Source of the DNA: Escherichia phage muut
Reading direction: 5' to 3' (one strand)
DNA length: 64,000 nucleotides
Sequence record: NC_052657.1
Positions 4,316 to 22,503 of this stretch are shown here, in pieces (positions within the stretch are counted from its first letter, which is position 1; every line of letters starts with the position of its first letter). The notes under the pieces are model-generated. The model searched no databases. It saw only the letters and a program-made list of their open reading frames with translations, and was not told the origin of the DNA. The position numbers and the translations under genes were made by a program.

Positions 4316-4792
4316 ATGTCTAAACGTTTTGGTCGTAATCAAAAAAGAAAGTTAAGTGCTCAACTAGCAGCTTTGCAAAAAGAGGTTAACACTTTACAAA
4401 AAAGTGTTTGTGAACTTAAGGAACAAAACCAACTTGAAAAAGAGTGTATCCAGCTTACACAGGAAGTTATTGGTGAGTATTTTCCTTCACTAGTTCCTAA
4501 GAAGGTGGCTCTTAGGGAAAATCTACCTTTTACCTTGTCCTTGATGCAAGCAAATAATAGATTCCAAACTGAAACTGATGATTTGATGTTTGCAATGCAT
4601 CAATTACATGGTTTAGAATATACAGCACAAGTGGATAAACTTCGTAACATGTTATATGTGCGGGTAGAAACACCTAAAGGTGAGACAGTAGCTTTTAATT
4701 ATAATTTCCAACAGCTACCTGATCATATTATTGAACAAATTTTAAAACGAGATTTTGTTCCTATGCTTGTTAAACAAATTAAGAGAGGTTGA
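4316..4792 (+). CDS. hypothetical protein with coiled-coil N-terminus
   Basis: 158 aa ORF. Confidence 0.55.
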   Translation: MSKRFGRNQKRKLSAQLAALQKEVNTLQKSVCELKEQNQLEKECIQLTQEVIGEYFPSLVPKKVALRENLPFTLSLMQANNRFQTETDDLMFAMHQLHGLEYTAQVDKLRNMLYVRVETPKGETVAFNYNFQQLPDHIIEQILKRDFVPMLVKQIKRG

Positions 4793-4793
4793 A

Positions 4794-7568
4794 ATGGCTA
4801 AGAAAGAGTTGAGCTTCACTCCAACAGAAGAGCAAACAGCTATTAAGGAGGCTTTTCCAGACCATCGCTTTTTAACTATCCAAGCTAAATCTGGATCAGG
4901 CAAAACGTCAACACTTTATTTGCTGGCTAACAGTACAGAAGATCGCATTCTTTACTTAGCTTTCAATAAAAGCATGGCAGAAGAAGCACGACGTAAGATG
5001 CCACCAAATGTAGAATGCCGTACATTGCATTCTATTTGCTATCAATTCCTGGATCATCGTTTACGTGCAAAACTGTCACGACCAGAAGGACAGTATGTTA
5101 ACGTTGCAGGTACAGGTAGTGAGATAGCAAAGAAATTTAAGATTAATAATCTTATTGATAAACGAGGGAAAACACTTTTAACTCGTGCCATGATTGGTTT
5201 AATGATCAAGCAAACAGTAGGTAAGTTTGAATTTTCGGATGATCCTTTTATCAGCCGTAAACATTTTCCTAGTGTACATCTTGCAGATATTAAAAGAAAA
5301 GGTATTAACGAACACAAACTAATTACAGAAGTAGTTAAGTATGCAAAACAATTGTGGCGAGAGCGCATTGATCCTAATACAGATACTTTGATGACGCATG
5401 ACACCTATGTAAAATTGTTTGAATTGTCTGGTGCTGATCTTGGTTATGATATTATTTTTGGTGATGAATTCCAGGATGTTAACCCTGCATTCTTGTCTAT
5501 TTTGCGAAATGCTAAATCTGCAAAACAAATTGTGGTAGTTGGCGATGAATTCCAATGTGTGTCAGAAAACACGGTACTTAATACCGAGAATGGTCAGGTT
5601 ACAATGAAAGACCTGCAAATCGGTGATAAGGTAGAGTCTTATTCTAATGGTAAAGTTACATTTAGAAAAGTAACAAATAAAACTTTATCTACACGTACAA
5701 AAGGTAGGAATATTATTACTACTAAAGGTAAAACTTTAGATATGACACATAATCATCGTATTTGGGCTTCACCTTATGTTCTGAAAGATGATCAAATGGT
5801 GGTATATCTAATGTGGAGGAAAGATTTAGGTTTCCGAGTAGGAATTACTAACAAATTCGATGATAAAGAAGGTTTTTCTAAACTGGGGCAACGTACACGT
5901 TCTGAAAAAGCACAGAAATTATGGGTGTTGGATATTGTTGAAAATCGCGAAGCTGCTATGGAAAAAGAAATGGCATACAGTTTACAATATGGCATTCCTA
6001 CTTGTGTATTTGAAGCAAGTTCACGCGGCATTAATCAAGAAAGGATCAATAACATCTTTGAACAATTCGGACAAAATGGTTTTAAACTTTTAGAGGATAA
6101 AGATTATCATTTTGCTTATCCACACTGGCACAGCATCAATTGTGCAGTAGATGAAAGAAAAATGCTAACAGTGACTTTGCGAGCACAAGGTTGTAAAGGA
6201 ACACAAGTTAGTTTTGAGTGGACAGAAAGTGAAATGCCGATCTATTCTTCACTGATTAAAGCAGGTGTAAGCGTAAGTGCTGCTAAATTGGAAGGTCGTT
6301 ACCGTGTACGTAAATATTTCAATTCTTATCGTGAAGCATTGAGTTTTGCACAAAAGATCCTTGAAATAGTTCCGTTTGCATCTTTAAAAGAATGCATGTC
6401 CTCTGTGAACAGTGCCAAATATAACTTAATTCCGGCAGCGGGTTTGTTTAAAGGCATGTCTGTGTTGGTAAAAGATGGTGATACTGTAACGGCAGAAGAG
6501 ATTGTGGACATTGTAGATAGTGAGGGTATCTATTATGATATTGAAGTAGAGGATACTGCTAACTTCTTTGGCAATGAAATTCTTAGCCACAACTGCATTT
6601 ATCAATTTAGAGGTAGCTCTAATATGATGATTGAAACAGCTAAGTATGGGGCAGAACTTCCATTAACTGCTTGCTTCCGTTTTGGCCCCAAAGTGGCAAA
6701 CATTGCCAATATGATTTTAAGCGATAAAGAACCTTTGCGTCATCCTTTGGTTGGTAAAGGCTTTGATACTGTAGTAGGTAGCTACAAATCAGATGTTGTA
6801 GACTATACAAAACCTTACACTATCATCTTTCGCAAGAATTTAACCTTGCTTATGGAGGCAATGGATCGTATTGCAGATGGGGAAGAAATTATTATTAACG
6901 TAGATACCAGGGATTTTATCTCTATGGTAGATAGTGTTAATGCTCTTCGGAGAGGAGATATTGAGAAAGTAAAACATGAAACTGTATTACCTTACGCAGA
7001 CTGGGATGAATTTGTTGAGTGTGCAGAGGCTGATCCAGATGCTAAACGCTTGTTAAACATCGTAGTTTCTGGTAAGGCGAACACTATAGCACATACACTT
7101 AGAACGCATAGAAATTCTCCTACAGCAAAAGTCACACTTACTACAGCACACAAGTCTAAAGGTTTGGAGTGGGATCAGGTTATTGTTGCTAATGATTTTC
7201 CTTCCAACTATGATAAAAAGACTGGTGAATGGGTAGGACTGGAAGAGGCAGAGCGAAACCTACTGTATGTAGCGCATACCCGTTGTGTTAAATGCTTACA
7301 ATGGAACACAACCGTACAGGAGATTATAGATATCAATCGTGTTGCAACAGAGAAAGTACCAACAAGCACCACTTTACCGATCAATGGTATTAAACTTGGT
7401 GTATTTGGCGCTGGCACATCTCGAAAAACTGTAGAAAAATTTGTTGCAGATTCTTTTGATGGTAACTATAATCATGCACAAGCATATGAGAGTTGGCTAG
7501 AGGAAGGTGAAGGTGATTTCTTAGGTGAAATAAATCTTTTACCAGACATAAATAAACTGGTAAACTAA
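4794..7568 (+). CDS. SF1 UvrD/Rep-like DNA helicase precursor, interrupted by an intein
   Basis: Motif I AKSGSGKTS, motif II FGDEFQDVN, motif III split as VVVGDEFQ / CIYQFRGSS, TAHKSKGLEWDQVIV, YVAHTRC; ATG 4794 with AGAGAGG RBS. Confidence 0.8.
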   Translation: MAKKELSFTPTEEQTAIKEAFPDHRFLTIQAKSGSGKTSTLYLLANSTEDRILYLAFNKSMAEEARRKMPPNVECRTLHSICYQFLDHRLRAKLSRPEGQYVNVAGTGSEIAKKFKINNLIDKRGKTLLTRAMIGLMIKQTVGKFEFSDDPFISRKHFPSVHLADIKRKGINEHKLITEVVKYAKQLWRERIDPNTDTLMTHDTYVKLFELSGADLGYDIIFGDEFQDVNPAFLSILRNAKSAKQIVVVGDEFQCVSENTVLNTENGQVTMKDLQIGDKVESYSNGKVTFRKVTNKTLSTRTKGRNIITTKGKTLDMTHNHRIWASPYVLKDDQMVVYLMWRKDLGFRVGITNKFDDKEGFSKLGQRTRSEKAQKLWVLDIVENREAAMEKEMAYSLQYGIPTCVFEASSRGINQERINNIFEQFGQNGFKLLEDKDYHFAYPHWHSINCAVDERKMLTVTLRAQGCKGTQVSFEWTESEMPIYSSLIKAGVSVSAAKLEGRYRVRKYFNSYREALSFAQKILEIVPFASLKECMSSVNSAKYNLIPAAGLFKGMSVLVKDGDTVTAEEIVDIVDSEGIYYDIEVEDTANFFGNEILSHNCIYQFRGSSNMMIETAKYGAELPLTACFRFGPKVANIANMILSDKEPLRHPLVGKGFDTVVGSYKSDVVDYTKPYTIIFRKNLTLLMEAMDRIADGEEIIINVDTRDFISMVDSVNALRRGDIEKVKHETVLPYADWDEFVECAEADPDAKRLLNIVVSGKANTIAHTLRTHRNSPTAKVTLTTAHKSKGLEWDQVIVANDFPSNYDKKTGEWVGLEEAERNLLYVAHTRCVKCLQWNTTVQEIIDINRVATEKVPTSTTLPINGIKLGVFGAGTSRKTVEKFVADSFDGNYNHAQAYESWLEEGEGDFLGEINLLPDINKLVN
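5556..6593 (+). mobile_element. intein (346 aa) inside helicase motif III
   Basis: Starts CVSENTVL (block A), LDMTHNHRIW (block B, TxxH), IYYDIEVEDTANFFGNEILSHN (blocks F/G) followed by Cys +1; about 250 aa insert between B and F with no recognisable LAGLIDADG. Confidence 0.75.
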
Positions 7569-9814: not shown

Positions 9815-9862
9815 GATCAAGGACAATCTTACGAAAAAGATTTAAAATAAAGATCCACCCTA

Positions 9863-9890
9863 AAGCCAGCTTAATGCTGGCTTTTATTTT
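9863..9890 (+). terminator. rho-independent terminator
   Basis: AAGCCAGC-TTAAT-GCTGGCTT then TTATTTT. Confidence 0.6.
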
Positions 9891-9903
9891 CCACGGAGGA
9901 TTA

Positions 9904-11703
9904 ATGACCCAAAAACTATATGAGGATGTAATCGGATTCCTCGAACAAACATCCGAAGAATTTACTCGTGAAAATGCAAACAAACCTGCAATGATTGTTA
10001 ATACTCACCGAGACTTACTAGCAGGTATCCTAAGCAAGCACATGGCAATGACCCATATTTTACCGGAAGATCTAGCAGAATGGCATAAAAGTGGGTATGG
10101 TCACATTCACGATTTAGATTATTTACTCTCACCTCTAACTAATTGTTGCCTGGTAAATTACCAAGATATGCTTGAGAACGGTTTCCGTATTGGTAATGCA
10201 CATATTGAAAAACCAAAATCTATTGGCGTAGCAACTACTGTCCTAACTCAAATTATTCAAGCAGTAGCTTCTAGCCAATATGGTGGACAAACTTGTGCAC
10301 ATATTGATACTGGGCTTAGTCAATACGTTAAAGCAAGTTTTAACAAAATATATGCCGATGTTGGCGATTATGATATTGCTATGCGTATGGTAGATAAACA
10401 GGTTTACGATGCAATGCAAACTTTAATCTACCAGGTGAACACCCTAATGAGTGTAAATGGTCAGTCACCTTTTATAACAATTAGTTTAGGTTTGGATACC
10501 TCTGCTTTTGGTAGAATGATCACTAAAAACTACCTAATGGTGCACAAACAAGGATTAGGAAAAGATAGGGTAACTCCTGTGTTTCCTAAAGTTATCTTCT
10601 TCTTGGAAGATGGTGTTAACATGAAAGCTGGCGATCCAAACTATGATTTGAAGCAACTGGCAATGGAGTGTTGTGCTGAACGCATTTATCCTGATTTTAT
10701 CTCTGTACCTTTAAACAAAGAAGTTACAGGATCTTCAGATGGTCGCGTCACAAGCATGGGTTGCCGTAGTTTCTTGTCATACTATGCAACAGAGCAAGGT
10801 GAAAAATATGATGGTCGTTTCAATTTAGGCGTAGTTTCTTTAAACTTACCTATCATTGCAGCAGAGTCCCGTGAAAAGGGCATCTTATTTACTGAACTGT
10901 TGGAACAACATATGGAGATGGCGTATAAGGCACATATGCTACGTGTTAACCGTATTAGACATACCAAAGCATCTCAAAACCCTACATTGTTTATGGAAGG
11001 GGCTTTAGCTCGACTAGAAGCTAATGAAGAGATTGGTAAACTATTCGAAGGTGGTTATGCCTCTATTAGTATCGGTTATGTAGGTTTAGCAGAAGCTATG
11101 GAGATTTTATACCCAGGTAACACCAATCCAAAAGCAATGGGTAAAAACATCCTTCAATATATGAAGGATATCTGTGGCACATTTAAAGAACGTTCTGGTT
11201 TAGCTTTTAGTTTGTATGGAACACCAGCAGAATCCTTGTGCTATAAATTTGCCAAAGCATTAAATGATCGCTATCCTGGTTCTATTGATCGTGACTACTT
11301 GACAAACTCTTTCCATCAACCTGTGTGGATGCACACTACCCCGTTCCAAAAGTGGGATTATGAGGAAGGTTTTGCACAAATCAGTAATGGTGGGAACATA
11401 GGTTATGTAGAAACACCAAACCTTAAAAATAACTTGCAAGCACTGGAAACTCTTGTAGATTATGCCTACAACAAAATTCCTTATTTTGGCGTGAACCAAC
11501 CTGTAGATCAGTGTTTCAAATGTGGTTTTCATGGTGAATTTAAGGCAACAGCTAAAGGCTTCGAGTGTCCAAGTTGTGGCAATCATGAGGAAGAATCTAT
11601 ATCTGTAATCAGAAGAGTGTCAGGATATCTTTCTGCCCCTAACTCTCGCCCTTATAATAAAGGTAAAATGCAAGAGGTATTAGAAAGGGAGAAACATTTT
11701 TGA
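9904..11703 (+). CDS. nrdD: anaerobic ribonucleoside-triphosphate reductase
   Basis: About 600 aa; C-terminal glycyl-radical motif RVSGYL and CxxC zinc ribbon (CFKCG...CPSCG); ATG 9904 with GGAGGA RBS. Confidence 0.85.
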   Translation: MTQKLYEDVIGFLEQTSEEFTRENANKPAMIVNTHRDLLAGILSKHMAMTHILPEDLAEWHKSGYGHIHDLDYLLSPLTNCCLVNYQDMLENGFRIGNAHIEKPKSIGVATTVLTQIIQAVASSQYGGQTCAHIDTGLSQYVKASFNKIYADVGDYDIAMRMVDKQVYDAMQTLIYQVNTLMSVNGQSPFITISLGLDTSAFGRMITKNYLMVHKQGLGKDRVTPVFPKVIFFLEDGVNMKAGDPNYDLKQLAMECCAERIYPDFISVPLNKEVTGSSDGRVTSMGCRSFLSYYATEQGEKYDGRFNLGVVSLNLPIIAAESREKGILFTELLEQHMEMAYKAHMLRVNRIRHTKASQNPTLFMEGALARLEANEEIGKLFEGGYASISIGYVGLAEAMEILYPGNTNPKAMGKNILQYMKDICGTFKERSGLAFSLYGTPAESLCYKFAKALNDRYPGSIDRDYLTNSFHQPVWMHTTPFQKWDYEEGFAQISNGGNIGYVETPNLKNNLQALETLVDYAYNKIPYFGVNQPVDQCFKCGFHGEFKATAKGFECPSCGNHEEESISVIRRVSGYLSAPNSRPYNKGKMQEVLEREKHF

Positions 11704-12170
11704 ATTACGCCGGATATGAACCTGTTGACATGCTCAACGGTGACGGTGTAAGATGCTCTTTGTGGGTGAGCGGTTGTAGCCACGGTTGCCGTGGCTGCTT
11801 TAACCAGAAAGCCTGGTCGTATAACTACGGACAAGAGTTCACTACTGAAACATTAGATCTTATCTTGAAAGATTTATCTCGACCTTTCATTAAAGGATTA
11901 ACAGTTTTAGGTGGTGAACCTCTTGACAAAGAGAACATTGACACTGTAGCGTATGTTCTTGAGAAGGTAAGAGATTGTTTTGGAAACAAAAAAGATATTG
12001 TCTTATACACAGGATATCTTTTTGAAGAAATTCCAGAGAAAATTAAAAAACTGGTTGACATAGTGATAGATGGTAAGTATGATATGAATCAACCAACAAC
12101 GAAACGTTATAGAGGCTCAGATAATCAACGAATGTGGGTTAAGAAAGACAACATTTGGGAATCTGACTAA
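11700..12170 (+). CDS. nrdG: anaerobic RNR activating protein (radical SAM)
   Basis: CSHGCRGC 4Fe-4S motif, 156 aa, start overlaps nrdD stop. Confidence 0.85.
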   Translation: MNYAGYEPVDMLNGDGVRCSLWVSGCSHGCRGCFNQKAWSYNYGQEFTTETLDLILKDLSRPFIKGLTVLGGEPLDKENIDTVAYVLEKVRDCFGNKKDIVLYTGYLFEEIPEKIKKLVDIVIDGKYDMNQPTTKRYRGSDNQRMWVKKDNIWESD

Positions 12171-12190
12171 ATTAAATAGAGGAGAAAACT

Positions 12191-13351
12191 ATGTTTACAG
12201 TATTCGGCAATCAAATCTTCCTGCGTCAGAAATCTGGTACAGATATTGAAGAAATTCCAGCAGGAACTTTTGGTGTAGGTGTTACTCAAAGTGGTGAGTT
12301 CTTCCTGTATCCTAAAAACGATATGGAAGTGCCTTCAGTAACATACGGTGATACTGATGATAAATCAGAACGTATTATCAAAACGTTCCTTAGCCGCAAA
12401 GGTAAAAACACAGGTGTTCTCCTTGAGGGTACGAAAGGTAGCGGTAAAACTTTGCAAGCTAAAATGCTGTCTTCTGCTCTTCGTGAAATGGGTATTCCTA
12501 CTATTTCTATCGGCAGTGCTTTTAATGGCGAAGGTTTTATCAATTTTATGTCTAAAATCACACAACCTGTGATGATTATGATCGATGAATTTGATAAACT
12601 GTATGCTGAAAAAGATGCACAAGATGGTTTGCTTACCCTGTTGGATGGTGTTGGTGGCTACGACAAACTGTTTGTATTGACTAAAAATGATGGTTATGTA
12701 TCAGAATTTTTGCGTAATCGTCCTAGCCGTATTTTCTACAGTTTTAGCTATAAGAAACTACCTAAAGCTACTATGGATGATTATCTGGCTAAAAATCTGG
12801 AGAACAAAGCCTTCTTACCAGATTTTGAAACGCTTTATAATCTCTCCGTGGATTTGAACTTTGATATTGTTCAGTCATTAGTAGAAGAACTTAACCGTTA
12901 CCCTAATGACAAATTCTCTGATGCACTTGCATTGATGGGTATCAGTATTACTGAACACCGCTATGCTGCAAAAGAGGTTAAACTTCTGAAAGTTAACGGT
13001 GTAGATCGTACAGGAGATGTTTCGTCAGATACCGATATTGACGGTATGACAGCACAAGGTTTGTTTAGCGGTAATCGTTATGTTGTAGCTGTAGACCATA
13101 AACTAGGTGAAGAGCATCTTCCTGAAATGGAAGGGATTGTTACCGTAGAAGATAAAGATGAAGAAGGTGACTACTACTGGGGTGTAGACCGTATCTTGCT
13201 AACGTATGATGAAAAACACATTCGTACAATGGGTGGTGACGGTTATCACTTTATGTTCACCGATGATAAAGGTAACAACATTGAAGTTGTTATTAAAAAC
13301 AAAGAACGTAAAAACTACACAGAGTATGTGTTTGGTGGTCGTTCTTACTAA
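12191..13351 (+). CDS. AAA+ family ATPase
   Basis: Walker A GTKGSGKT, Walker B IMIDEFD; 386 aa. Confidence 0.6.
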   Translation: MFTVFGNQIFLRQKSGTDIEEIPAGTFGVGVTQSGEFFLYPKNDMEVPSVTYGDTDDKSERIIKTFLSRKGKNTGVLLEGTKGSGKTLQAKMLSSALREMGIPTISIGSAFNGEGFINFMSKITQPVMIMIDEFDKLYAEKDAQDGLLTLLDGVGGYDKLFVLTKNDGYVSEFLRNRPSRIFYSFSYKKLPKATMDDYLAKNLENKAFLPDFETLYNLSVDLNFDIVQSLVEELNRYPNDKFSDALALMGISITEHRYAAKEVKLLKVNGVDRTGDVSSDTDIDGMTAQGLFSGNRYVVAVDHKLGEEHLPEMEGIVTVEDKDEEGDYYWGVDRILLTYDEKHIRTMGGDGYHFMFTDDKGNNIEVVIKNKERKNYTEYVFGGRSY

Positions 13352-13358
13352 GTGATAA

Positions 13359-13384
13359 AAGGAGGCGAAAGCCTCCTTTATTTA
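13359..13384 (+). terminator. rho-independent terminator (GAAA tetraloop)
   Basis: GGAGGC-GAAA-GCCTCC then TTTATTT. Confidence 0.6.
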
Positions 13385-13385
13385 T

Positions 13386-13589
13386 ATGGAGGGTATTATG
13401 GATCATTATTTTGTTTTTAAAGATAAAGTTGATACCGCAGGTGGTCACGTTGCTAAAAATGATCGTGACATTAAAGAAGTATTAGGAGATCTGATTAACA
13501 TTTTAGAACAAAAAGAGTTGCTTTTAGATAAGGATATTGCTAGACTTCTGGGTGTGGGGATAAGTGACATACAAAGATTACCATTCTAA
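13386..13589 (+). CDS. small hypothetical protein
   Basis: 67 aa ORF; alternative ATG at 13398. Confidence 0.4.
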   Translation: MEGIMDHYFVFKDKVDTAGGHVAKNDRDIKEVLGDLINILEQKELLLDKDIARLLGVGISDIQRLPF

Positions 13590-13600
13590 AGGGGAAGAAA

Positions 13601-13756
13601 ATGCTTACAGATGATGAATATAAAGCTATCCAGGAAAAACTAACGGAGCTTGAAATTCTTGCTGTCAATATTAAAGATCAATCACATGCTGGAAAGTTAC
13701 TACAGCAAGAGATCAATAAAATTAAGCAGATGATATTCTTTTGGACGGAGGATTAA
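13601..13756 (+). CDS. small coiled-coil protein (51 aa, not in ORF track)
   Basis: ATG 13601 after GGGGAAG RBS; MLTDDEYKAIQEKLTELEILAVNIKDQSHAGKLLQQEINKIKQMIFFWTED. Confidence 0.4.
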   Translation: MLTDDEYKAIQEKLTELEILAVNIKDQSHAGKLLQQEINKIKQMIFFWTED

Positions 13757-13758
13757 AA

Positions 13759-14415
13759 ATGACTGTTAAGCATATTTCTTTTGATGTATGGAATACTCTT
13801 ATTACTGCTAATCCTTTGTATGCAGAAGAACGCAACAAGGTTATTGCCGAGTATGCCTCTTGTTCTGAGGTAGAAGCAGCTACCGTATATAAAGAGGTAA
13901 AAACTCTCCTGGATTTAAAAGCAGAAAAAGGTATTTGTGGAACATCTAGGCATGCTTGGGAAACACTTTCTGCTCATTTGAACATTGATCTTGATAAGGT
14001 GGATGGGTTAAAAAGAGACTGTTTAGCAATGTTTATAAAACATCCTCCAACATTAAACCCTGAACTTTGCAAGAAGTTGGAAGAGCTAAGTTCAACCTAT
14101 TCTTTGAGTATTAAAAGCAATACTAATTTTGTACCTGGTAGTTTTTTAGCTGTATATTCTGGCTTGACAAAATTACCATTCGACTTTATGCATTTTTCTG
14201 ACGAGTTTTGCTTGTGTAAACCAGATCCTAGGTTTTTTAAACTCTCTTTTGATGAAATGGTAACGTTTGATCTCGCACCAGAGGAGATCTTACACGTTGG
14301 AGATAGTTTGATCTATGATGGAAAAGCTGTTGACATAGGGATGAAGTTCTGTCATATTATTAATCCAGAAGACTTGTTGGCTAAACTTAAAAAAGAGGAA
14401 CTTATTAATGCGTAA
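13759..14415 (+). CDS. HAD-like hydrolase (variant motif I)
   Basis: ISFDVWNTLI (motif I with W in place of the second Asp), HVGDSLIYDGKA (motif IV); ATG 13759 with GGAGGA RBS; 3' end overlaps next gene. Confidence 0.45.
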   Translation: MTVKHISFDVWNTLITANPLYAEERNKVIAEYASCSEVEAATVYKEVKTLLDLKAEKGICGTSRHAWETLSAHLNIDLDKVDGLKRDCLAMFIKHPPTLNPELCKKLEELSSTYSLSIKSNTNFVPGSFLAVYSGLTKLPFDFMHFSDEFCLCKPDPRFFKLSFDEMVTFDLAPEEILHVGDSLIYDGKAVDIGMKFCHIINPEDLLAKLKKEELINA

Positions 14416-15265
14416 TCAAATTCAACATTTTGCTAATACTTTTACTAACCTGAAGGAAGCAAAATTTAACATTGCAGATTATTCCAAGCTAAAGTTTGGT
14501 AGTAACCAGGCAGCAAAAAGAATGGGGCGCATTCTGGCTGAAAGTTTCTTTTCCAAGTATGAAGAACGACTGGTAAATGAAAGTTTTGTTGTTATTCCAT
14601 CTCCATATAACTATGTGAAAAATGCAGCTACAGTGTTATCTGAACATTTTGTAGATCACCTCAACTACCTAATCTCTATCAAAGGAGGTAAAGCAGTGGA
14701 GTGGGATATCGTTCATCGTAAAGTGAGCTATATCAATGATTATGGATTTCTTAGCAAAGAAGATCGTAAGGCTTTGATCGATGGTGACACTTTCTCTATC
14801 AATCGTGATTTCTGGGGTAATAAAACTCTGATTTTCATTGATGATGTTAATATTACAGGAACGCACGAAGAAAAACTTATTGAAATTTTAGACAAAGAAG
14901 GTGTTGAAAACGATACGTTTTTCCTGTACTTTGCAAAGTATGAAGGTACAGAAGCCAATACCGAAGCTGCACTTAACTTCAACTATATCAATAACCTGGC
15001 AGCTTTTATTAAAATGATTAAACAAGAAACTGATGCTAAATGTTTGGTTCGTCCTATTAAGTATCTAATGAGTCAAAGCGAAGTTGATTTTAAAATTGCA
15101 CTTTCACAGCTTCCTTTGTATTATGTAGAACAACTGTTCTTTGGTTGCCTTGCAGAAGGCTACAATAACATTGAAAAATATAAAGAGAACTTTGATTTCC
15201 TACGTCAATTTTTTGAAAGCAACATTATCAACAAATCTAATGTTAAAGGGGATTATTATGTCTAA
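14408..15265 (+). CDS. phosphoribosyltransferase-like protein
   Basis: LIFIDDVNITGTH matches the type I PRTase PRPP-binding loop; overlaps both neighbours. Confidence 0.5.
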   Translation: MRNQIQHFANTFTNLKEAKFNIADYSKLKFGSNQAAKRMGRILAESFFSKYEERLVNESFVVIPSPYNYVKNAATVLSEHFVDHLNYLISIKGGKAVEWDIVHRKVSYINDYGFLSKEDRKALIDGDTFSINRDFWGNKTLIFIDDVNITGTHEEKLIEILDKEGVENDTFFLYFAKYEGTEANTEAALNFNYINNLAAFIKMIKQETDAKCLVRPIKYLMSQSEVDFKIALSQLPLYYVEQLFFGCLAEGYNNIEKYKENFDFLRQFFESNIINKSNVKGDYYV

Positions 15266-15974
15266 TAAAGTAATGACTTTCGGAGATCCTATCACCAATA
15301 TTACAGAAAAAGATTTTGGGCGTGTAGCAACAGATAAAGATGGTGTCTTAAGAATTCGTGTACAAGGTATTACAGCACAGGATGAATATGCTGTGTATGT
15401 TTCAGGTCTTAACTATATTGATGATCGCATTACACAAAACTTTGCACTGATCGGTGGTGTAGAGAAAATGTATTGGGAAGATGAAATTGTAACAAGTTAT
15501 CCGGCAGGTATCATTGAGGTATACGGTGATCTTTTAGCAGCAGCCGAGAGAGGCGATATAGACGCTATAGCACACTGCTGTAACTGTTTTTGCACTATGG
15601 GTAGTGGTATTGCACCAAAAATTAAAAGCAAGTGGCCTGGTGCGTTTAAAGCAGATTGTGCCACTAAACGTGGTGATTATAAAAAATTAGGTACGTTTAC
15701 CAAATATATAGAAAACAATTTGACAATTTATAATTTATATGGACAATATGGTTATAGTCGTCGTGAGGAAGGTAAGCGTGACCTGAATTATGAAGCTATC
15801 TACAATGCGTTAGATAGTATGGGAGACGATGTTGTATCTTCAGGCGGTAAAATTGTAGGTTTACCAATGCTTGGTTGTGGTTTGGCTGGAGGTTCTTGGA
15901 GTATTGTAAAACTTATGATCGAAGAAACTCTAGTAAACAAAGGTTTAAATGTAATTGTTTACAAACTGAAATAA
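15258..15974 (+). CDS. macro domain protein with an N-terminal extension of about 90 aa
   Basis: DAIAHCCNCFCTMGSGIAPKI and VGLPMLGCGLAGGS align with macro-domain blocks (DVIVNAAN..GGGGVDGAIH; FPAISTGVYG); ATG 15258 overlaps upstream stop. Confidence 0.5.
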   Translation: MSNKVMTFGDPITNITEKDFGRVATDKDGVLRIRVQGITAQDEYAVYVSGLNYIDDRITQNFALIGGVEKMYWEDEIVTSYPAGIIEVYGDLLAAAERGDIDAIAHCCNCFCTMGSGIAPKIKSKWPGAFKADCATKRGDYKKLGTFTKYIENNLTIYNLYGQYGYSRREEGKRDLNYEAIYNALDSMGDDVVSSGGKIVGLPMLGCGLAGGSWSIVKLMIEETLVNKGLNVIVYKLK

Positions 15975-15983
15975 GGAGAAAGT

Positions 15984-16190
15984 ATGGCAGGTGTTTTAGC
16001 AGTATTAGGTTGTTTTATTGTTGTGTTTTTGATTGTGTTAATCCCTAGTTGGCTACTGCTTTTAGCATACAACTATATGATTGACATTATCGGCTTAGAC
16101 TGGCATCATGTTCCTGTAACGTTTTGGAGTGTAGTCTGTGTGACGTTCATTCTTGCGGTACTTCGTGGTATCTTTCAATCTAACAAATAA
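15984..16190 (+). CDS. small membrane protein
   Basis: 68 aa, two hydrophobic helices. Confidence 0.5.
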   Translation: MAGVLAVLGCFIVVFLIVLIPSWLLLLAYNYMIDIIGLDWHHVPVTFWSVVCVTFILAVLRGIFQSNK

Positions 16191-16204
16191 GAGAGGATTT
16201 TTAT

Positions 16205-16453
16205 ATGCGTAAAGTAAATGTTGAAGTGCTTGAAAAATTTAGAAACACTCGTGATTGTACTATCGGCAAGGTTTACGAGGCTATTCTCCTTGAAGATGGA
16301 GATCAAGTTCCTGCCCCGTATCACGCCTTTAATGGTCAAATCAGCAAAGTGGAAGGTGGTCTTGCTATTTGCTTTATTGATGACGTAGGTGATGCTGTAG
16401 CTTTCCCTGTCATTAACAAAGAAGATAAACTTAAAATTACAGAACTGAACTAG
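16205..16453 (+). CDS. hypothetical protein
   Basis: 82 aa ORF. Confidence 0.45.
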   Translation: MRKVNVEVLEKFRNTRDCTIGKVYEAILLEDGDQVPAPYHAFNGQISKVEGGLAICFIDDVGDAVAFPVINKEDKLKITELN

Positions 16454-16483
16454 TTGACTTTCTTTAAAAACAGTTTATAGTAT
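16454..16483 (+). promoter_or_regulatory. promoter candidate (TTGACTTT -35, TAGTAT -10) upstream of terC-like gene
   Basis: TTGACT 16454-16459, 18 nt spacer, TAGTAT 16478-16483. Confidence 0.35.
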
Positions 16484-16493
16484 AAGACATAGA

Positions 16494-16512
16494 GCGGAGG
16501 ATTGTCCTCCGC
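16494..16512 (+). promoter_or_regulatory. 5' leader hairpin that includes an anti-SD-like CCUCC
   Basis: GCGGAGGA-TTG-TCCTCCGC, no U tract, 18 nt before ATG 16531. Confidence 0.3.
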
Positions 16513-16530
16513 ATTAAAGAGGAGAAAAGA

Positions 16531-17508
16531 ATGCAACTGGGTTTCCCAATTATTGATGTGGTTGTTTTAGTGGGTATTTTAGTCTTGTCGATTTGTATTG
16601 ACTTCTTTGGACACAGAGAAAACAAAGAAATTTCATTTAAATCTGCAATTGGCTGGTCAATTTTCTGGATTGGGGTATCATTAGCCTACTATGGTTTTGT
16701 ATACTTCCAACACGGTGCTGATTTTGCGAGCTTGTTCTTGAGTGGGTATGTGTTGGAGAAATCTCTTTCTGTAGATAACTTAGTAGTATTTGTAGCAGTA
16801 TTCGCAAGTTTTGGTATTAAAAGCACACACTTGCAGCACAAGATTCTACTTTGGGGTATTGCAGGTGCGATTGTCTTCCGAGGTGTGTTTGTAGCAGTAG
16901 GCACTTACTTGTTGAGTTTGGGCTGGTATGTTAATATCTTCTTCGGTGCTGTCATCCTTTTCTGTGCGGCTAAAATGGTATTCGCTGGAGATAATGATGC
17001 AGAAGTTGATTACTCTAAACACTGGGCTACTCGCATTGTTCGTAAGCTGTTCCCTGTATCTGATCAGATGGATGGTGAGAAGTTCTTCACAATCAAAAAT
17101 GGTGTTCGTGTAGCAACTCCGGCTCTGGTTTGTGTGTTTGTAATGGAAATGGTTGACGTAATCTTTGCAGTAGACTCTGTTCCAGCAGTAATTGCAGTGA
17201 CACAAGAACCTCTGCTTGTATTTTCTTCAATGCTGTGTGCAATTTTAGGTCTACGTGCTCTGTTCTTTGTACTTAGTGTTGCACTGAAATATTTGGTTCA
17301 TCTGGAGAAAGCAGTTATCGTAGTCCTGGTGTTTGTGGGTGTAAAACTGATGTATCATCCGTTTGCAGAAACTCTGCACGCAAAAGTGAGTTTCCTACCA
17401 GCACACATTGATCCGACGATCAGTATGTATATTGTGTTAGGTACTCTTGGGTTGGGTGTTATTGCAAGTTTAATCTTCCCTGAAAAAGAAGACCAGACTG
17501 TTGCTTAA
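16531..17508 (+). CDS. terC: TerC family integral membrane protein
   Basis: Multi-pass membrane protein with both TerC signature repeats: EKSLSVDNLVVFV and EMVDVIFAVDSVPAVIAVT. Confidence 0.8.
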   Translation: MQLGFPIIDVVVLVGILVLSICIDFFGHRENKEISFKSAIGWSIFWIGVSLAYYGFVYFQHGADFASLFLSGYVLEKSLSVDNLVVFVAVFASFGIKSTHLQHKILLWGIAGAIVFRGVFVAVGTYLLSLGWYVNIFFGAVILFCAAKMVFAGDNDAEVDYSKHWATRIVRKLFPVSDQMDGEKFFTIKNGVRVATPALVCVFVMEMVDVIFAVDSVPAVIAVTQEPLLVFSSMLCAILGLRALFFVLSVALKYLVHLEKAVIVVLVFVGVKLMYHPFAETLHAKVSFLPAHIDPTISMYIVLGTLGLGVIASLIFPEKEDQTVA

Positions 17509-17513
17509 TTCAT

Positions 17514-17536
17514 TAAGCCCCTTCGGGGGCTTTGTT
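17514..17536 (+). terminator. rho-independent terminator (UUCG tetraloop)
   Basis: AAGCCCC-TTCG-GGGGCTT then TGTT. Confidence 0.65.
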
Positions 17537-17547
17537 GAGGTGATCTG

Positions 17548-17754
17548 ATGGTGGTTTTACGTGTTCTTTGGATTCTGTTTGAAAATATTTGTTTTGCTCT
17601 AGGGTTGTTTTGTTTGATTTTTATCTTGACAACATATATTGATAACCATACAATTACTATCAACAGGAACGGAGAACAGATGTATTGTTTCTCTAGGGAT
17701 TTTAAAAATTGTGTTGAGACTTTAAATGAGAGGGTTACAAATGAAAAACATTAA
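17548..17754 (+). CDS. small membrane protein
   Basis: 68 aa, hydrophobic N-terminus. Confidence 0.35.
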   Translation: MVVLRVLWILFENICFALGLFCLIFILTTYIDNHTITINRNGEQMYCFSRDFKNCVETLNERVTNEKH

Positions 17755-18331
17755 ATCTTTTATTGTTGCAGTTGTTTTAGGTAGTGTATTGCTGGTAGGT
17801 TGTGATGATTCTGAAAATGTACAAAATCAACGTTACCAGCAAACACCAAATCAGATGGTAGATGAGCAATATGTAAATCAACCTGCACCTCAAGTTGTTC
17901 AAGCAGCACCTGCACAACCTTCAACAGTTGTTGTTCAAGGAGGCGGCAGTGGTTCTTCTGGCGTAGGTGAGTTCGCTACAGGTATGCTTCTTGGTCATAT
18001 GTTGAGTGGTAATAGTGGCGGTGGTGGTTATAGAGATGGCGGTAGCAATACAACAATTATCAATAACAACGCTGCTCCTACAACTAATAGTAAAGCATAT
18101 ACAACACAAAAGCATAGTTTTTATGATAAACAAGGAAATACATATACAACCACTAAACAAAACACAATTAAGCAGCAAAGTGTACAAACGTATTCACGCC
18201 CATCAACAACAAAAGTGAATAGTAATTACTCTGCTCGTAAGTCTTACTCAAGCCCTATTAGCTCTTATAGTAAGTCTTCGAAAAGTTATTCTTCGTCGAA
18301 ACGTAGTTTTAGTAGCTCACGTCGTCGTTAA
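17741..18331 (+). CDS. lipoprotein with glycine-zipper segment and Ser/Tyr-rich tail
   Basis: Signal peptide with lipobox LLVGC; GEFATGMLLGHMLSGNSGGGG; tail SYSSPISSYSKSSKSYSSSKRSFSSSRRR. Confidence 0.6.
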   Translation: MKNIKSFIVAVVLGSVLLVGCDDSENVQNQRYQQTPNQMVDEQYVNQPAPQVVQAAPAQPSTVVVQGGGSGSSGVGEFATGMLLGHMLSGNSGGGGYRDGGSNTTIINNNAAPTTNSKAYTTQKHSFYDKQGNTYTTTKQNTIKQQSVQTYSRPSTTKVNSNYSARKSYSSPISSYSKSSKSYSSSKRSFSSSRRR

Positions 18332-18366
18332 TAATTTAATACAGATTAAATAAGAAGGAGAAACAG

Positions 18367-19218
18367 ATGAAACTAGAAGTTGGTAAAGTATATCGCCTGG
18401 AAGGTTGGATCTTTAATCAAGAAATTCTTGAGAAGAATAAAGATGGTTTTGAGTTTGTTGGTACTACCAAGGAAAGTATGCACAATGACGAATACTGTAA
18501 ATTCGTTGGTAAAAATACAGGTCAAGAACAATTTTGCTTTAAGAGCGCAATCGGTGATTATGCTTCTGTAATGCCAACACCAGAAAAAACTCCGAAGCAA
18601 TATACTGTCTTTGGTGTAAAACTTGAAGAACTTGTAGAACACCCACGTTTTGAAGAGTTCAAGGTTGCTGCAATGCGCAAGCATTCTGAAATTAAAATAC
18701 ATAATTTGTTTGATTTAGAAGATCGGTTTGATATCTTTATGTATGATCGCAGGGAAAAGCATTTTGATGCAACGACTTCAAAATTTGCTGCAACAGAGGA
18801 TATTAAAATCCTTGATGTTGATACCTTTCTTCACAATGTATCGTTTGTATTCATTCCTAAATACAAAAAACGTAGTGATCATAAACGTGTGAAAGGAACT
18901 CCTCGTAAAAAACGTACTGTAAACAAAGCAACTTTGCACTTCACTTCTGGTGATAAGTATACTCTCAAAGGGTTTGAAAGTGTTTTGTATGATGCTGGAA
19001 CGGGTAATATCAAGTTTATCATTAAGGCAACCTACAAAGGTACGGTATTGCACGAAGAGGCTGTTACACTACCTGTATTCGATATCTCTCGTGTTGAGGT
19101 ACGGGGTGTTAAAGAGTCCTTCGATCTGGATTTCTTAACCACTAATGCTACTGGTTATGTTAATCTGGAAGCAGATGGAGCCTTTATTACTACAAATTAT
19201 TTAGATATGTTTGTTTAA
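18367..19218 (+). CDS. hypothetical protein
   Basis: 283 aa ORF, AGGAGA RBS. Confidence 0.55.
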   Translation: MKLEVGKVYRLEGWIFNQEILEKNKDGFEFVGTTKESMHNDEYCKFVGKNTGQEQFCFKSAIGDYASVMPTPEKTPKQYTVFGVKLEELVEHPRFEEFKVAAMRKHSEIKIHNLFDLEDRFDIFMYDRREKHFDATTSKFAATEDIKILDVDTFLHNVSFVFIPKYKKRSDHKRVKGTPRKKRTVNKATLHFTSGDKYTLKGFESVLYDAGTGNIKFIIKATYKGTVLHEEAVTLPVFDISRVEVRGVKESFDLDFLTTNATGYVNLEADGAFITTNYLDMFV

Positions 19219-19286
19219 TACTTAATTTGTGTTATGATGGTGGTACAGAGGTATCACCATCTACTAAAGAATATGGAGGAAATTGA

Positions 19287-20390
19287 ATGTCCAGTCCTTT
19301 TATCAGTGCCGTAAAAAGCAAACCGTCTGAAATGAGTGTATTCACGGCAACAACAGAAAAAAGTAAGTCTTTGTTTGCTCCAAGTGCTATGGATGCAAGC
19401 CCTGTATATGCCCCTGCTGTTGCACGACCTGTACAAATGCTGCCTCCAATGTCTCGTGAAGAGATTGAACAAGTTGGTGCTGATGCAGGACTTACTCTTC
19501 GTAACCTTAATGCTGAAGTGCTTAAACACCAGCGTTCATCTCAGGGGGATGAAATGAGTGAACGTTTAACTGCACTTATTAAGCAAGCAAAGCAACTTGA
19601 TCCTAACTCTATTAAACAATCTAAAGGCTTAGGTAAACTAGTTAAGAAAGTATTAGGTATGAAAGAAGATTTGTTTGGTGAATTTGACACCATCAATAAT
19701 CGTATTGAAGGTTTGGTAAAGACACTACAAACAGACTTGAAAAAAGAAGAAGATTCTTTACGATATCTGCAACGTTTAGAAGAGGCTATTGCAAAATATG
19801 CTCTTAGCTTAAACAGGGATATAGAGCTTCTAACAGCTACTTATGAAAAAGAAGAAGTTCGCCTTAATACACTACCTGAAAATGAAGTAGAAGAGCGTCA
19901 ACGTACTCGTGATACTATGGATCTGCTTGAAATTCGTATTGCAGACCTGAAAGCCTTGCGTTTACTGTGTGTTCAGATGGGGCCACGTGTACAAAGTATG
20001 CAGAAAGTATCTGCAAGTTTGATGCGATCAGCCCGTAATATTGTGAATAATGTTATCCCTGCTTACTCTGCAAACTTTTCTATGTATATTGAAAGTCTAC
20101 GCCAGAAGAAAGCAGCCGATACACAGAACAATGTGCTGAATGAATTTAATGCTGCTATTGCAATGGGTAGTGATCTGGCTGCACAAAACCAAATTGAAGC
20201 TACACAACTTGCTAATCGTCAAGTATTGGATATTGAAACATTACGTCGCGATCAAGAAAACTTAGTTAAAATGTTGGAAGAAACTAACCGAATCAACACT
20301 GAAGCCCGTGCTGCGCGTATTGATTACATTCAAGAAGTGCAATCTCTTGAAGATGGTATGATTCAAACTGTTAAACGTGGTCTACTTTAA
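19287..20390 (+). CDS. TelA/KlaA-like toxic anion resistance family protein
   Basis: 367 aa coiled-coil protein; C-terminal LDIETLRRDQENLVKMLEETNRINTEARAARIDYIQEVQ resembles the TelA block. Confidence 0.5.
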   Translation: MSSPFISAVKSKPSEMSVFTATTEKSKSLFAPSAMDASPVYAPAVARPVQMLPPMSREEIEQVGADAGLTLRNLNAEVLKHQRSSQGDEMSERLTALIKQAKQLDPNSIKQSKGLGKLVKKVLGMKEDLFGEFDTINNRIEGLVKTLQTDLKKEEDSLRYLQRLEEAIAKYALSLNRDIELLTATYEKEEVRLNTLPENEVEERQRTRDTMDLLEIRIADLKALRLLCVQMGPRVQSMQKVSASLMRSARNIVNNVIPAYSANFSMYIESLRQKKAADTQNNVLNEFNAAIAMGSDLAAQNQIEATQLANRQVLDIETLRRDQENLVKMLEETNRINTEARAARIDYIQEVQSLEDGMIQTVKRGLL

Positions 20391-20403
20391 GGAGAAATAT
20401 ATT

Positions 20404-20610
20404 ATGAATATTAAAATTTACAAACTGTCTGGTTCTATGATTGCTGTTCAGTATGACAATGAAGATCGTTATGTTCTCCTCCAGGATGCTTGGTTAGATG
20501 ATCCTAATGTATTCACTGTCCTGCGAGAACTACGCTCTGTCTATACCTATTCTTCTAAAGATGGTTTTGATAGTTCAACGATGGAATTGGTAAAAGAGGA
20601 GAATGTGTAA
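20404..20610 (+). CDS. hypothetical protein
   Basis: In-frame ATG 20404 after AAGGAGA RBS. Confidence 0.45.
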   Translation: MNIKIYKLSGSMIAVQYDNEDRYVLLQDAWLDDPNVFTVLRELRSVYTYSSKDGFDSSTMELVKEENV

Positions 20611-20810
20611 TGAGTAAAGATATTCACTTAACTCGTGAAGAATTGCAAACCATTATGGAAGATGCTTTCATTGATGGTTGGAAACAAGGTCAAGAATCAG
20701 ATTGGTATGATGCCGAAGATTTTTTGTATTATCATATGACTGCACCTGTAGACGAGCAAACACACTCTGAAACAACTTTGGCTTTAATTGATCTTAAGGC
20801 TGGTGTATAA
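20610..20810 (+). CDS. hypothetical acidic protein
   Basis: 66 aa ORF. Confidence 0.45.
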   Translation: MSKDIHLTREELQTIMEDAFIDGWKQGQESDWYDAEDFLYYHMTAPVDEQTHSETTLALIDLKAGV

Positions 20811-21373
20811 TGGGGTGTTTTAGTTTCTTGTGCAAAGAGTCTGGTAATGCTGCTCTTTCTACCTCTTTCGATGGCTCTCCTTGCTACCTATTTCTTTTGA
20901 AAGGTGGTAAGGTTGTCGAAGAGATGTATGGGAATTATGATAGCTATGGTAGTGTTTTCTCTAACGAAGAAGATAAACATGGCAATCGTAAAAGATTCAA
21001 GTGGTCTATGCCTTGGGAAGAAGTTTGTAATTTGATGTTCTCTTCCGATCTTGGAGATGGGATTGCTCTGGTATTAGAAGAACACTTTACAGGTGAGATC
21101 CCAACAGAAAGATCTGAAGAAGACCCTAACCAGGGTTGGGGTGATGGAGAAGAAGATCCAGATTGCTTCTTCAGCACTGAAAATAATAAATTTAAACGTG
21201 TTGACAATCCTTACCACAAAGTGCATAATACTTGCATTGAGACAGAAGAAGACTCAAAGCTAGAAATTGAAGATGATTTAGTTGTAACTATCTCTTTAAA
21301 CGATTTGCAAAAAATCACTAGAGAGGCTTTCTATTTAGGCTTGAGAGCAGGTAAAGGAGAAGACAGTGCTTAA
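20810..21373 (+). CDS. hypothetical protein
   Basis: 187 aa ORF. Confidence 0.5.
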   Translation: MGCFSFLCKESGNAALSTSFDGSPCYLFLLKGGKVVEEMYGNYDSYGSVFSNEEDKHGNRKRFKWSMPWEEVCNLMFSSDLGDGIALVLEEHFTGEIPTERSEEDPNQGWGDGEEDPDCFFSTENNKFKRVDNPYHKVHNTCIETEEDSKLEIEDDLVVTISLNDLQKITREAFYLGLRAGKGEDSA

Positions 21374-21635
21374 ATTTAATATCAAAGACGACAAATCAGA
21401 TGAACCTAAATGTTTTGGAGAACTTGACACAGGTGATACATTCGTATATTATGTTGCCTATCGAGATGCTGGTTTAGATACGTTCAGAAACTTAGTGTTT
21501 ATTAAGGTTAATACAAACCAAGCAATGTGTCTTAACGGTTCACAAAGAGGTCAACTTAACTGTATTTTATATGATACAGAAGTGGTAGAAGTGGATTTAG
21601 AAGTTACTAACATTACAGTCAGAAAGGAGAAATAA
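21366..21635 (+). CDS. hypothetical protein
   Basis: 89 aa ORF. Confidence 0.45.
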   Translation: MLKFNIKDDKSDEPKCFGELDTGDTFVYYVAYRDAGLDTFRNLVFIKVNTNQAMCLNGSQRGQLNCILYDTEVVEVDLEVTNITVRKEK

Positions 21636-21636
21636 T

Positions 21637-22431
21637 ATGTCCAATAAAATCAGTCTTAAAAAACGTCAAGAAACTCTTACTGTATCCCTGCGTAAGAAAA
21701 AGATTAACGATGTTGTTCTTCGTGTAGGTAGCGCCTTAGATATTTCGGGTAGTATGTGTGAGCTGTATCGTGATGGCACTGTTAGCGATTTTGTAGGTAA
21801 ACTGCTGCCGTTTGGTATGAAGTTTGATGATAATGCACAGATTGACATGTGGGCTTTCAATAGTTCTTCTTTTGAACTGCCTCCTGCAACGGCTGATGTG
21901 TATGATGATTATGTCGGCTCTTGCATGTCTAATGTTTGCATCAACGGTGGTACTGCTTATGCTCCAGTAATGCAAGAGATCTATGATACATACTTCGGTA
22001 GTGTACCTATGAAAAATATTACACGCGAAGTCGTTGAGTATGAAGAAGTTCCGGCTAAAGGTTTCCTTGCTAAACTAACTGGTAAAAAAGAACTTGTAGA
22101 AGTAACACGTACTGTTGTAGAACAGGTTGTAGATACTGATGCACAAGTTGATCGTACTCCTGCAATGATTTTCTTCCAAACTGACGGGGAGAACATGGAT
22201 ACTTCAGCAGTACGTAGCTTACTGAACAAACACCGCAATACGCCTGTTTACTGGTTTATGGTTGGTGTAGGTAATGCAAACTTTAAATTCCTGAAAGACT
22301 TGGCAAAAGAATACGATAATGTTGATTTTATCGGTATTGCAGATTTGTCCTTGTCTGACGAAGAACTTTACGATAAACTGCTATCTGAAGAGTTTGGTGA
22401 GTGGGTTAAAAAATTTGGAGCAAAAGCGTAA
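21637..22431 (+). CDS. vWA domain protein (TerY-like) with TerD-like N-terminal tag
   Basis: MIDAS DISGSM, GGTAYAP, FFQTDGE; N-terminus ISLKK..LTVSLRK parallels the TerD start. Confidence 0.55.
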   Translation: MSNKISLKKRQETLTVSLRKKKINDVVLRVGSALDISGSMCELYRDGTVSDFVGKLLPFGMKFDDNAQIDMWAFNSSSFELPPATADVYDDYVGSCMSNVCINGGTAYAPVMQEIYDTYFGSVPMKNITREVVEYEEVPAKGFLAKLTGKKELVEVTRTVVEQVVDTDAQVDRTPAMIFFQTDGENMDTSAVRSLLNKHRNTPVYWFMVGVGNANFKFLKDLAKEYDNVDFIGIADLSLSDEELYDKLLSEEFGEWVKKFGAKA

Positions 22432-22438
22432 AAAACGC

Positions 22439-22466
22439 TTGACTTTGTAGAAAAGATTAGTAAAAT
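22439..22466 (+). promoter_or_regulatory. promoter candidate (TTGACTTT -35, TAAAAT -10) upstream of terD-like gene
   Basis: TTGACT 22439-22444, 16 nt spacer, TAAAAT 22461-22466. Confidence 0.4.
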
Positions 22467-22503
22467 AGACAACGTAAATTAACAACAAAGGAGATAATAA
22501 ATT

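Follow-up and report, generated by a model that had tools for sequence, protein, structure and literature searches.

Escherichia phage muut encodes a probable classic-clade AAA ATPase of the phage-borne family PHROG 2376

Which kind of AAA+ ATPase is encoded directly downstream of nrdDG in Escherichia phage muut, and does it work together with a vWA protein encoded farther along the same strand? The stretch analyzed here (64,000 nucleotides (nt) of sequence record NC_052657.1, one strand, 5′ to 3′; hereafter the window) contains at 12191–13351 an ATG-started open reading frame (ORF) of 386 amino acids (aa) plus stop, as read from the window ORFs. A previous inspection of the letters, made without database searches (the sequence-only reading), had described its product as a P-loop ATPase with the motifs GTKGSGKT and IMIDEFD, and both were recovered at aa 80–87 and aa 129–135. 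It had also placed the gene after nrdDG and before a HAD/PRTase/macro trio, an order which the GenBank names of relatives and Pfam bear out. Finally, it had proposed that the ATPase is of the MoxR type and a partner of the vWA protein. AAA+ proteins of the MoxR family have vWA partners in the systems RavA-ViaA, CbbQ-CbbO and NorQ-NorD. Our analysis leads to a different picture, which we favor with slightly better than even confidence: a stand-alone classic-clade AAA ring ATPase of the phage-specific family PHROG 2376, which remodels or unfolds a protein.

Clade and family of the ATPase

The window belongs to a phi92-like E. coli myophage of the genus Justusliebigvirus, since a 15-kb stretch is 98–99% identical to many such phages. 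An identical protein (100%) is encoded by phage vB_EcoM_AMO3598. The phi92 equivalent of the ATPase, gp190 (98.7% identity), carries the GenBank text [quoted passage not shown]. In addition, a full-length match to the profile of PHROG 2376 (“ATPase”, function unknown) was obtained with 5.8e-104, covering aa 1–376 on profile positions 2–359 of 363. Based on the near-identical phage proteins and this match, we conclude that the ATPase ORF is not a chance ORF.

Profile searches upheld the assignment as an AAA+ ATPase made from the sequence alone. PF00004, with 29.4 bits against a cut-off of 21.2, is the sole Pfam family over its cut-off for this protein. AAA_5 (PF07728, MoxR/dynein-type) stays below threshold with 14.5 bits against 22, and AAA_3 (PF07726, MoxR) gave no reported match. 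Further, 45 relatives were aligned and each of them was scanned against Pfam, considering the 25 commonest families. PF00004 was matched by all 45 relatives and AAA_5 by 14, while AAA_3 and the clamp-loader, DnaA and DnaC families were absent from these 25. A profile built from the 45-relative alignment was then compared with all PDB sequences, and each of the best 60 matches was a classic-clade protein, with p97/Cdc48 as the top hit (3e-12), followed by VAT, NSF, Rix7/NVL, Afg2 and Pex1. In the HMMER alignment to p97, LLtllDG of the profile is paired with LLTLMDG, tN with TN and RPsRi with RPGRL.

The same clade was returned by structure. All structural statements on the ATPase rest on an AlphaFold2 model (predicted local distance difference test score, pLDDT, 86). 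The top matches in a fold search with this model were all classic-clade AAA proteins, including Bcs1, p97 and FtsH, and none of the top 50–60 fold matches was MoxR, RavA or CbbQ. Helix α2 is modeled as a short plain helix (aa 114–121), and only seven residues separate α3 (148–151) from β4 (159–165), a stretch equal in length to that of p97 in the HMMER alignment. Judged from the model, both the helix-2 insert and the pre-sensor-1 β-hairpin, i.e., the inserts that define MoxR proteins, are thus missing from the ATPase. We are highly confident that the protein belongs to the classic AAA clade (PF00004; p97/Cdc48, FtsH, Bcs1 type). The proposed MoxR type has to be given up, as no MoxR profile matched, both inserts are missing in the model and the nearest relatives are classic-clade proteins. 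A standard replication clade (clamp loader, DnaA/DnaC-like), named in the sequence-only reading as the outcome that would speak against it, was not found either; classification by hidden Markov models (HMMs) gave classic AAA instead.

PHROG 2376 is a large and widespread family, found in thousands of virulent phages. Besides the window ATPase, it is matched by a second phi92 protein, gp221, and by homologs of Bacillus (Deep Blue), Lactococcus (949 group), Staphylococcus (6ec-like), crAss-like, Aeromonas and Serratia jumbo phages. The family is also carried by Enterococcus, Lactobacillus, Erwinia, Proteus and Agrobacterium phages. Its hosts belong to the Proteobacteria, Firmicutes and Bacteroidota, and every tested member matches PHROG 2376. 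When 1.84 billion representatives were searched exhaustively with HMMER, at least 3,239 clusters at 50% identity scored E ≤ 1e-30. Of the 150 best representatives listed, nearly all are 347–443 aa long and have the same layout. Two longer proteins in this set (617 and 523 aa) were considered as informative domain fusions and rejected, as they showed AAA-type Pfam matches only. In 185,579 genomes (one per species), 44 loci were found. Since 42 of these are contigs of metagenome-assembled genomes (MAGs) and one of the remaining two is a 921-bp scaffold, the family is essentially confined to phages. A search for a phage-encoded classic AAA unfoldase in the literature searchable turned up none. 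Databases already list the gene itself as an “ATPase” of unknown function, and its accessory domains are uncharacterised. Interest lies mainly in how large this unstudied, unfoldase-like family is and in its restriction to phages.

Two observations concern a sliding-clamp label within the family. The member from Proteus phage 3H10_20 (L093 4854–6104) is annotated as “DNA polymerase III subunit beta”, which appears to be wrong because Pfam gives AAA-type matches only. Weak DNA_pol3_beta_2 matches occurred in two of the 45 relatives (best E-value 0.0011), but the C-terminal domain of gp190 matched no clamp structure, and a sliding-clamp link was dropped.

Domain architecture and proposed mechanism

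The model divides the ATPase into a small N-terminal β domain, an AAA α/β subdomain, a four-helix AAA lid and a C-terminal β-rich domain (Table 1). Conservation was counted over 120 non-identical members of PHROG 2376. The N-terminal domain is conserved family-wide in P23, G25, Y/F27, L39, Y52 and G53. Within the AAA module, the catalytic residues of Walker A, Walker B and sensor-1 are invariant. The candidate for pore loop 1 has W, F or Y at position 111 in 114 of the 120 sequences and Gly at position 113 in 84. Directly after Walker B, the family-specific residues F134, K136 and Y138 follow, with K136 present in all 120. R177 and R180 are likewise found in every sequence, P178 in 118, and position 179 is occupied by G (64 sequences) or S (55); most members therefore literally read RPGR. 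In the lid, F224, D225, E232, E233 and N235 are conserved.

The sequence-only reading had reported a C-terminal part of about 200 aa with no motif. This does not hold for aa 188–250, which form the AAA lid with its conserved residues, but it stands for aa 259–386. Between the two, the model contains a linker of low confidence around aa 255–257. The C-terminal β-rich domain is modeled across aa 259–375, and a comparison of this domain with PDB structures gave no match.

Considering these features, a mechanism can be proposed. By analogy with other classic AAA proteins, the ATPase would assemble into a ring. ATP would be hydrolyzed at the subunit interfaces, involving K86 (Walker A), D132/E133 (Walker B), N166 (sensor-1) and R177/R180 as arginine fingers. 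The aromatic pore loop F111-x-G113, perhaps together with Y138, would pull on a protein substrate, leading to its unfolding or to the dismantling of a complex. The conserved N-terminal domain may serve as a common docking element, and the variable C-terminal domain may provide lineage-specific targeting. In this scheme, the ATPase would act independently of the Ter/vWA module encoded downstream.

Gene neighborhood and alternative explanations

The ATPase gene is followed by a terminator-like hairpin (Table 1). At the same post-stop position, hairpins of different sequence are found in two further loci (L011, 1686–1705; L091, 11174–11191), the ATPases of which are 73% and 57% identical to the window ATPase. 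GC-rich tetraloop hairpins after the stop codon in three diverged lineages fit a conserved terminator or an RNA-stabilising element. As a second hairpin is located at the 5′ end of the nrdD ORF, the two would bracket nrdD, nrdG and the ATPase gene as one transcription unit, apart from the island downstream. These signals, read from the DNA, suggest that such a unit may end with the ATPase gene, at the hairpin 13358–13379.

The island at 13741–23100 is a Ter-type module (TerC, TelA, TerF-type vWA, TerD) with the HAD, PRTase_3 and macro genes in front. A vWA gene about 8 kb downstream, as claimed from the sequence alone, is indeed present there: Pfam identifies it as PF10138 at a distance of 8.3 kb on the strand of the ATPase. 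In between are 16 annotated genes (gp189 to gp174). In TerF, the TerD and vWA domains are fused in one protein; in the window, vWA and TerD are separate adjoining genes. Since the vWA gene adjoins TerD and shares the island with TelA and TerC, it has its expected partners, and no ATPase is needed to explain it.

Database records give the same result on a larger scale. The ATPase occurs in 301 phage-database records and the vWA protein in 181. The two sets overlap in the Stephanstirmvirinae, and co-occurrence is confined to this subfamily (two genera). In Phapecoctavirus, the only ATPase copy is located about 23 kb from the vWA gene and on the opposite strand (ESCO13: 134097 (+) vs. 110685 (−)). 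By organism counts, the ATPase occurs without vWA in at least 19 Lactobacillus, at least 19 Lactococcus, at least 13 Staphylococcus and at least 8 Aeromonas phage records, and vWA without the ATPase in at least 7 Caulobacter phage records. In 80 IMG/VR loci, inspected for 10 kb on each side, vWA and TerD (searched with an HMM built for TerD) were found only in phi92/Klebsiella-phi1-like loci. Outside the phi92-like clade, neither was present in any of 76 IMG/VR loci over the same distance, nor in any of 44 genome and MAG loci with 6 kb on each side. Even a full-length ATPase homolog with 46% identity has no ter gene within 10 kb. On the other hand, two Grimontviridae phages carry TerD genes 3–4 kb from the ATPase, so that a loose co-location with ter genes recurs.

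A MoxR-type AAA+ chaperone which acts on the vWA protein or loads it with metal, like RavA-ViaA or CbbQ-CbbO, could draw on the common strand and accessory region of the two genes, on the presence of both families in two Stephanstirmvirinae genera and on the TerD genes of the Grimontviridae phages. However, the profile scores, the missing inserts and the fold matches contradict the MoxR part. The partnership is contradicted by the 16 genes and the conserved hairpin between the genes, by the separation in Phapecoctavirus, by 0 of 120 loci outside the phi92-like clade, by the frequent occurrence of each gene alone and by the position of the TerF-like vWA beside TerD, its fusion domain in TerF. 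We consider this explanation very unlikely, the vWA partner proposed earlier is not supported, and the ATPase is very probably independent of the vWA protein. The GenBank text on gp190 would instead allow for an FtsH-like ATP-dependent zinc metalloprotease. Its AAA module indeed resembles that of FtsH, but the protein has no HExxH motif, no peptidase M41 domain and no hydrophobic segment or membrane anchor (highest 19-residue Kyte-Doolittle mean 0.99), and its C-terminal β domain is not matched in PDB. An FtsH-like protease is therefore extremely unlikely, and the “Zn metalloprotease” half of the GenBank text was rejected as unsupported.

More hints of a function were obtained from other copies and their surroundings. 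phi92-like phages carry two paralogs, gp190 (the window copy) and gp221 (phi92 FR775895.2 133606–134733; L089 3107–4234). The latter is encoded on the other strand at a distance of about 15 kb, outside the window, and a tblastn search for a second ATPase copy within the window found none. gp221 is 47% identical to gp190 over aa 2–253 (N-terminal domain, AAA module and lid) and retains every motif, but BLAST detected no similarity between the C-terminal domains. The gene order at gp221 is shared with the single Phapecoctavirus copy. In an unbiased clustering of the ORFs around 116 loci, no neighboring family reached more than 14 of them at a distance of up to 3 kb. Within one broad environmental phage clade (IMG/VR loci L026, L030, L039, L066, L069, L075, L078, L080, L083 and L085), the order is NMNAT-Nudix, macro, NAMPT, ATPase, often with rIIA, rIIB and SPFH/Band-7 nearby. 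A Proteus phage has NAMPT and TerD a few kb upstream of the ATPase and SPFH immediately downstream. In the 57%-identical relative (L091), a PARP-like gene with WGR, PARP_reg and PARP catalytic domains (14792–16105) lies between the ATPase and TerC, occupying the region where the window has HAD, PRTase and macro. In summary, the surroundings of the gene are made up of accessory, nucleotide-metabolism and replication genes, not of structural genes.

Such contexts leave room for a function in DNA replication or recombination, either as a loader-like factor or as an AAA remodeller of replisome or recombination proteins. The homolog of a crAss-like phage is encoded between primase and a Cas4-like exonuclease; in a Staphylococcus 6ec-like phage, the homolog is preceded by DnaB, primase, RNase H and RecJ and followed by a Holliday-junction resolvase. 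Both copies lie inside a replication/recombination module. In the phi92 lineage, the ATPase comes after UvrD helicase, MazG and nrdDG. A PHROG 681 endonuclease follows both gp221 and the Phapecoctavirus copy, and weak PHROG matches point to clamp loaders and, for gp221, to DnaC-like loaders. Conservation over very different hosts also fits a core process. However, the match to the clamp loader profile PHROG 168 reaches only 4e-5 against 5.8e-104 for PHROG 2376, and beyond the lack of clamp-loader, DnaA and DnaC families among the 25 commonest, one outside relative showed IstB_IS21 at sub-threshold level only. The NCBIfam models Hda and Cdc6 scored 15–16 bits with cut-offs above 180, and the extra helix after α2 that is specific for initiators is not present in the AlphaFold model. 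The C-terminal domain is β-rich rather than the helical collar of clamp loaders, and as it has no PDB match, it is not sliding-clamp-like either. Moreover, protein-remodelling AAAs typically have the RPGR pair and the aromatic pore loop, and many other contexts contain no replication genes. We regard a replication or recombination accessory ATPase as unlikely. A special case of our preferred reading would be an unfoldase for host takeover or counter-defence, an early phage protein which dismantles a host complex and whose C-terminal domain tracks the target. Trip13 disassembles HORMA-CD-NTase complexes; in the same way, a classic-AAA unfoldase of virulent phages across many phyla would dismantle a host immune or stress complex by force. 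If so, the adjacency of NAMPT/NMNAT-Nudix/macro/PARP and of rII/SPFH, as well as the duplication in phi92-like phages with different C-terminal domains, would be hints, and the paralogs gp190 and gp221 might form mixed rings. Nevertheless, the nicotinamide adenine dinucleotide (NAD)/ADP-ribose neighborhood was not replicated in the 44 independent genome and MAG loci (NAMPT 1, NMNAT 1, macro 0) and may thus be gene order inherited within one clade. A conserved N-terminal domain and a host range that extends from Firmicutes to Bacteroidota sit uneasily with a host-specific defence target, and the fold score of Trip13 is barely apart from those of other AAAs. Defence families searched with PADLOC were rejected, as all matches of the ATPase were below significance (mad8 0.0015, SspF 0.01); all its NCBIfam matches were far under their cut-offs. 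Both the general counter-defence explanation and its Trip13-like form are, in our view, unlikely.

Several points also weigh against the stand-alone remodelling ATPase that we prefer. The literature search found no experimental study of any PHROG 2376 member. A function conserved from Bacillus to Bacteroides hosts argues for a universal target, but no substrate emerges from the gene contexts. After Walker B, the protein has fewer residues than typical unfoldases, visible as gaps in the alignment to p97, and pore loop 1 lacks its Gly in some members. For these reasons, threading of a protein via the pore loop is unproven, and we give it an even chance. Finally, the promoter and terminator consensus matches in this region are not above shuffled expectation; only the position of the hairpin and the conservation of this position are suggestive.

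Table 1. Position of the ATPase gene, its domains and motifs, and further features of the window.
Feature	Position	Strand	Remarks
ATPase gene	12191–13351	+	386 aa plus stop; = phi92 gp190; PHROG 2376 member
Ribosome-binding site GAGGAG	12179–12184	+	6 nt 5′ of the ATPase ATG; read directly off the sequence
N-terminal small β domain, aa 1–55	12191–12355	+	Five β strands in the AlphaFold model, pLDDT 85–96
AAA α/β subdomain, aa 56–187	12356–12751	+	PF00004 match aa 76–164; fold matches Bcs1, p97, FtsH
Walker A GTKGSGKT, aa 80–87	12428–12451	+	G80, G83, G85, K86 each 120/120
Pore-loop-1 candidate F111-N-G113 (aromatic-x-Gly)	12521–12529	+	Aligns with the KWVG pore loop of fidgetin-like 1
Walker B IMIDE, aa 129–133	12575–12589	+	D132, E133 each 120/120
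Sensor-1 Asn166	12686–12688	+	120/120; aligns with TN of p97
R177-P-S-R180	12719–12730	+	Counterpart of RPGR in the second region of homology of classic AAA proteins (arginine fingers)
AAA lid, four-helix subdomain, aa 188–250	12752–12940	+	Model helices 192–202, 206–218, 224–236, 242–249
C-terminal β-rich domain, aa 259–386	12965–13348	+	On a flexible linker; fast divergence between lineages
Sigma-70-like promoter candidate TTGACA-17-TATGAT (11/12)	12055–12083	+	In the nrdG 3′ end, 108 nt before the ATPase start; consensus match only
Terminator-like hairpin	13358–13379	+	GC-rich 9-bp stem, GAAA loop, then ATTTAT; 7 nt after the ATPase stop
Terminator-like hairpin	9862–9884		9-bp stem overlapping the listed ATG 9874, where the nrdD ORF begins
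nrdD	9874–11703		Directly upstream region of the ATPase; name from GenBank annotation of near-identical phages
nrdG	11700–12170		Adjoins the ATPase upstream; name from GenBank annotation of near-identical phages
HAD hydrolase	13741–14415		Pfam
PRTase_3 (ComF-like)	14408–15265		Pfam
Macro domain protein	15258–15974		Pfam
TerC	16531–17508		Pfam
TelA	19287–20390		Pfam
vWA, PF10138 “vWA-TerF-like”	21637–22431	+ (ATPase strand)	Pfam 1.2e-38; gp173
TerD	22504–23100		Pfam; vWA ends 73 nt upstream

A number of further observations were made in the window and its relatives. The nrdD gene of the window is a single uninterrupted ORF of 609 aa. In phi92, the annotation splits nrdD into gp193 and gp192 and adds a “spliced variant” that covers approximately 250 nt more. 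Some other relatives contain an insertion of approximately 770 bp in the searched 15-kb region, and an endonuclease is annotated there in one record. The phi92 GenBank record also lists a “hypothetical tRNA” antisense within gp190 (117581–117668, minus; window equivalent 12581–12668), which is probably a false positive because ARAGORN found no tRNA in the window from 11500 to 14000. Four GenBank entries labeled “Campylobacter phage” (MG065639, MG065645, MG065656 and MG065689; host C. jejuni) are 98.4% identical over 15 kb to the E. coli phage lineage of the window, and their host labels look doubtful. An ORF of 593 aa at 28555–30333 contains the Walker-A-like sequence AKTSIGKT; besides the UvrD-like helicase (4746–7565) and the ATPase, this is the sole such motif in frames of at least 100 aa in the window. 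The macro protein of the island matches the PADLOC profile of DarG (3.5e-13). DarG is an antitoxin which removes ADP-ribose from DNA. The profile match suggests that the macro protein may be a phage counter to DarT-type ADP-ribosylation.

Comparison with known systems

The ATPase has Walker A and B, the sensor-1 Asn and the LLxxxDG helix in common with p97/Cdc48/VAT, NSF, Rix7/NVL, Rpt/PAN/Mpa and the AAA module of FtsH. It further shares with classic AAA remodellers the RPGR-type arginine pair and the aromatic-x-Gly pore loop 1, and neither has a pre-sensor-1 or helix-2 insert. Unlike these proteins, it consists of a single AAA module between β domains of 55 aa (N-terminal) and approximately 125 aa (C-terminal), neither of which was matched to a known domain; its post-Walker B stretch is shorter, with the family-specific K136-x-Y138, and the family is found in phages only. 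Bcs1 is the mitochondrial AAA translocase of the folded Rieske protein. Bcs1 and YjoB of Bacillus subtilis are 14–19% identical to the ATPase, with a fold match limited to the AAA module and the lid, and in contrast to both, the ATPase has no transmembrane anchor.

Compared with MoxR-vWA systems, the common ground is a P-loop AAA+ protein and a vWA gene in the same genome region, whereas the inserts and the AAA_3/AAA_5 matches are absent here and the genes are not adjacent. In the phi92 lineage, the Ter stress module (TerD, TerC, TelA, TerF-type vWA) is encoded on the ATPase strand farther downstream, but the ATPase is not a recognised Ter component, and Ter genes are absent near 120 other family loci. 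A MoxR-vWA pair in a phage Ter island would, if true, be a new phage chaperone system; the evidence says otherwise. Instead, PHROG 2376 appears as a very large, phage-borne family with Gram-positive, Gram-negative and Bacteroidota hosts, which has all hallmarks of a protein-threading AAA motor. Identification of its substrate would fill a common annotation blank in large phage genomes.

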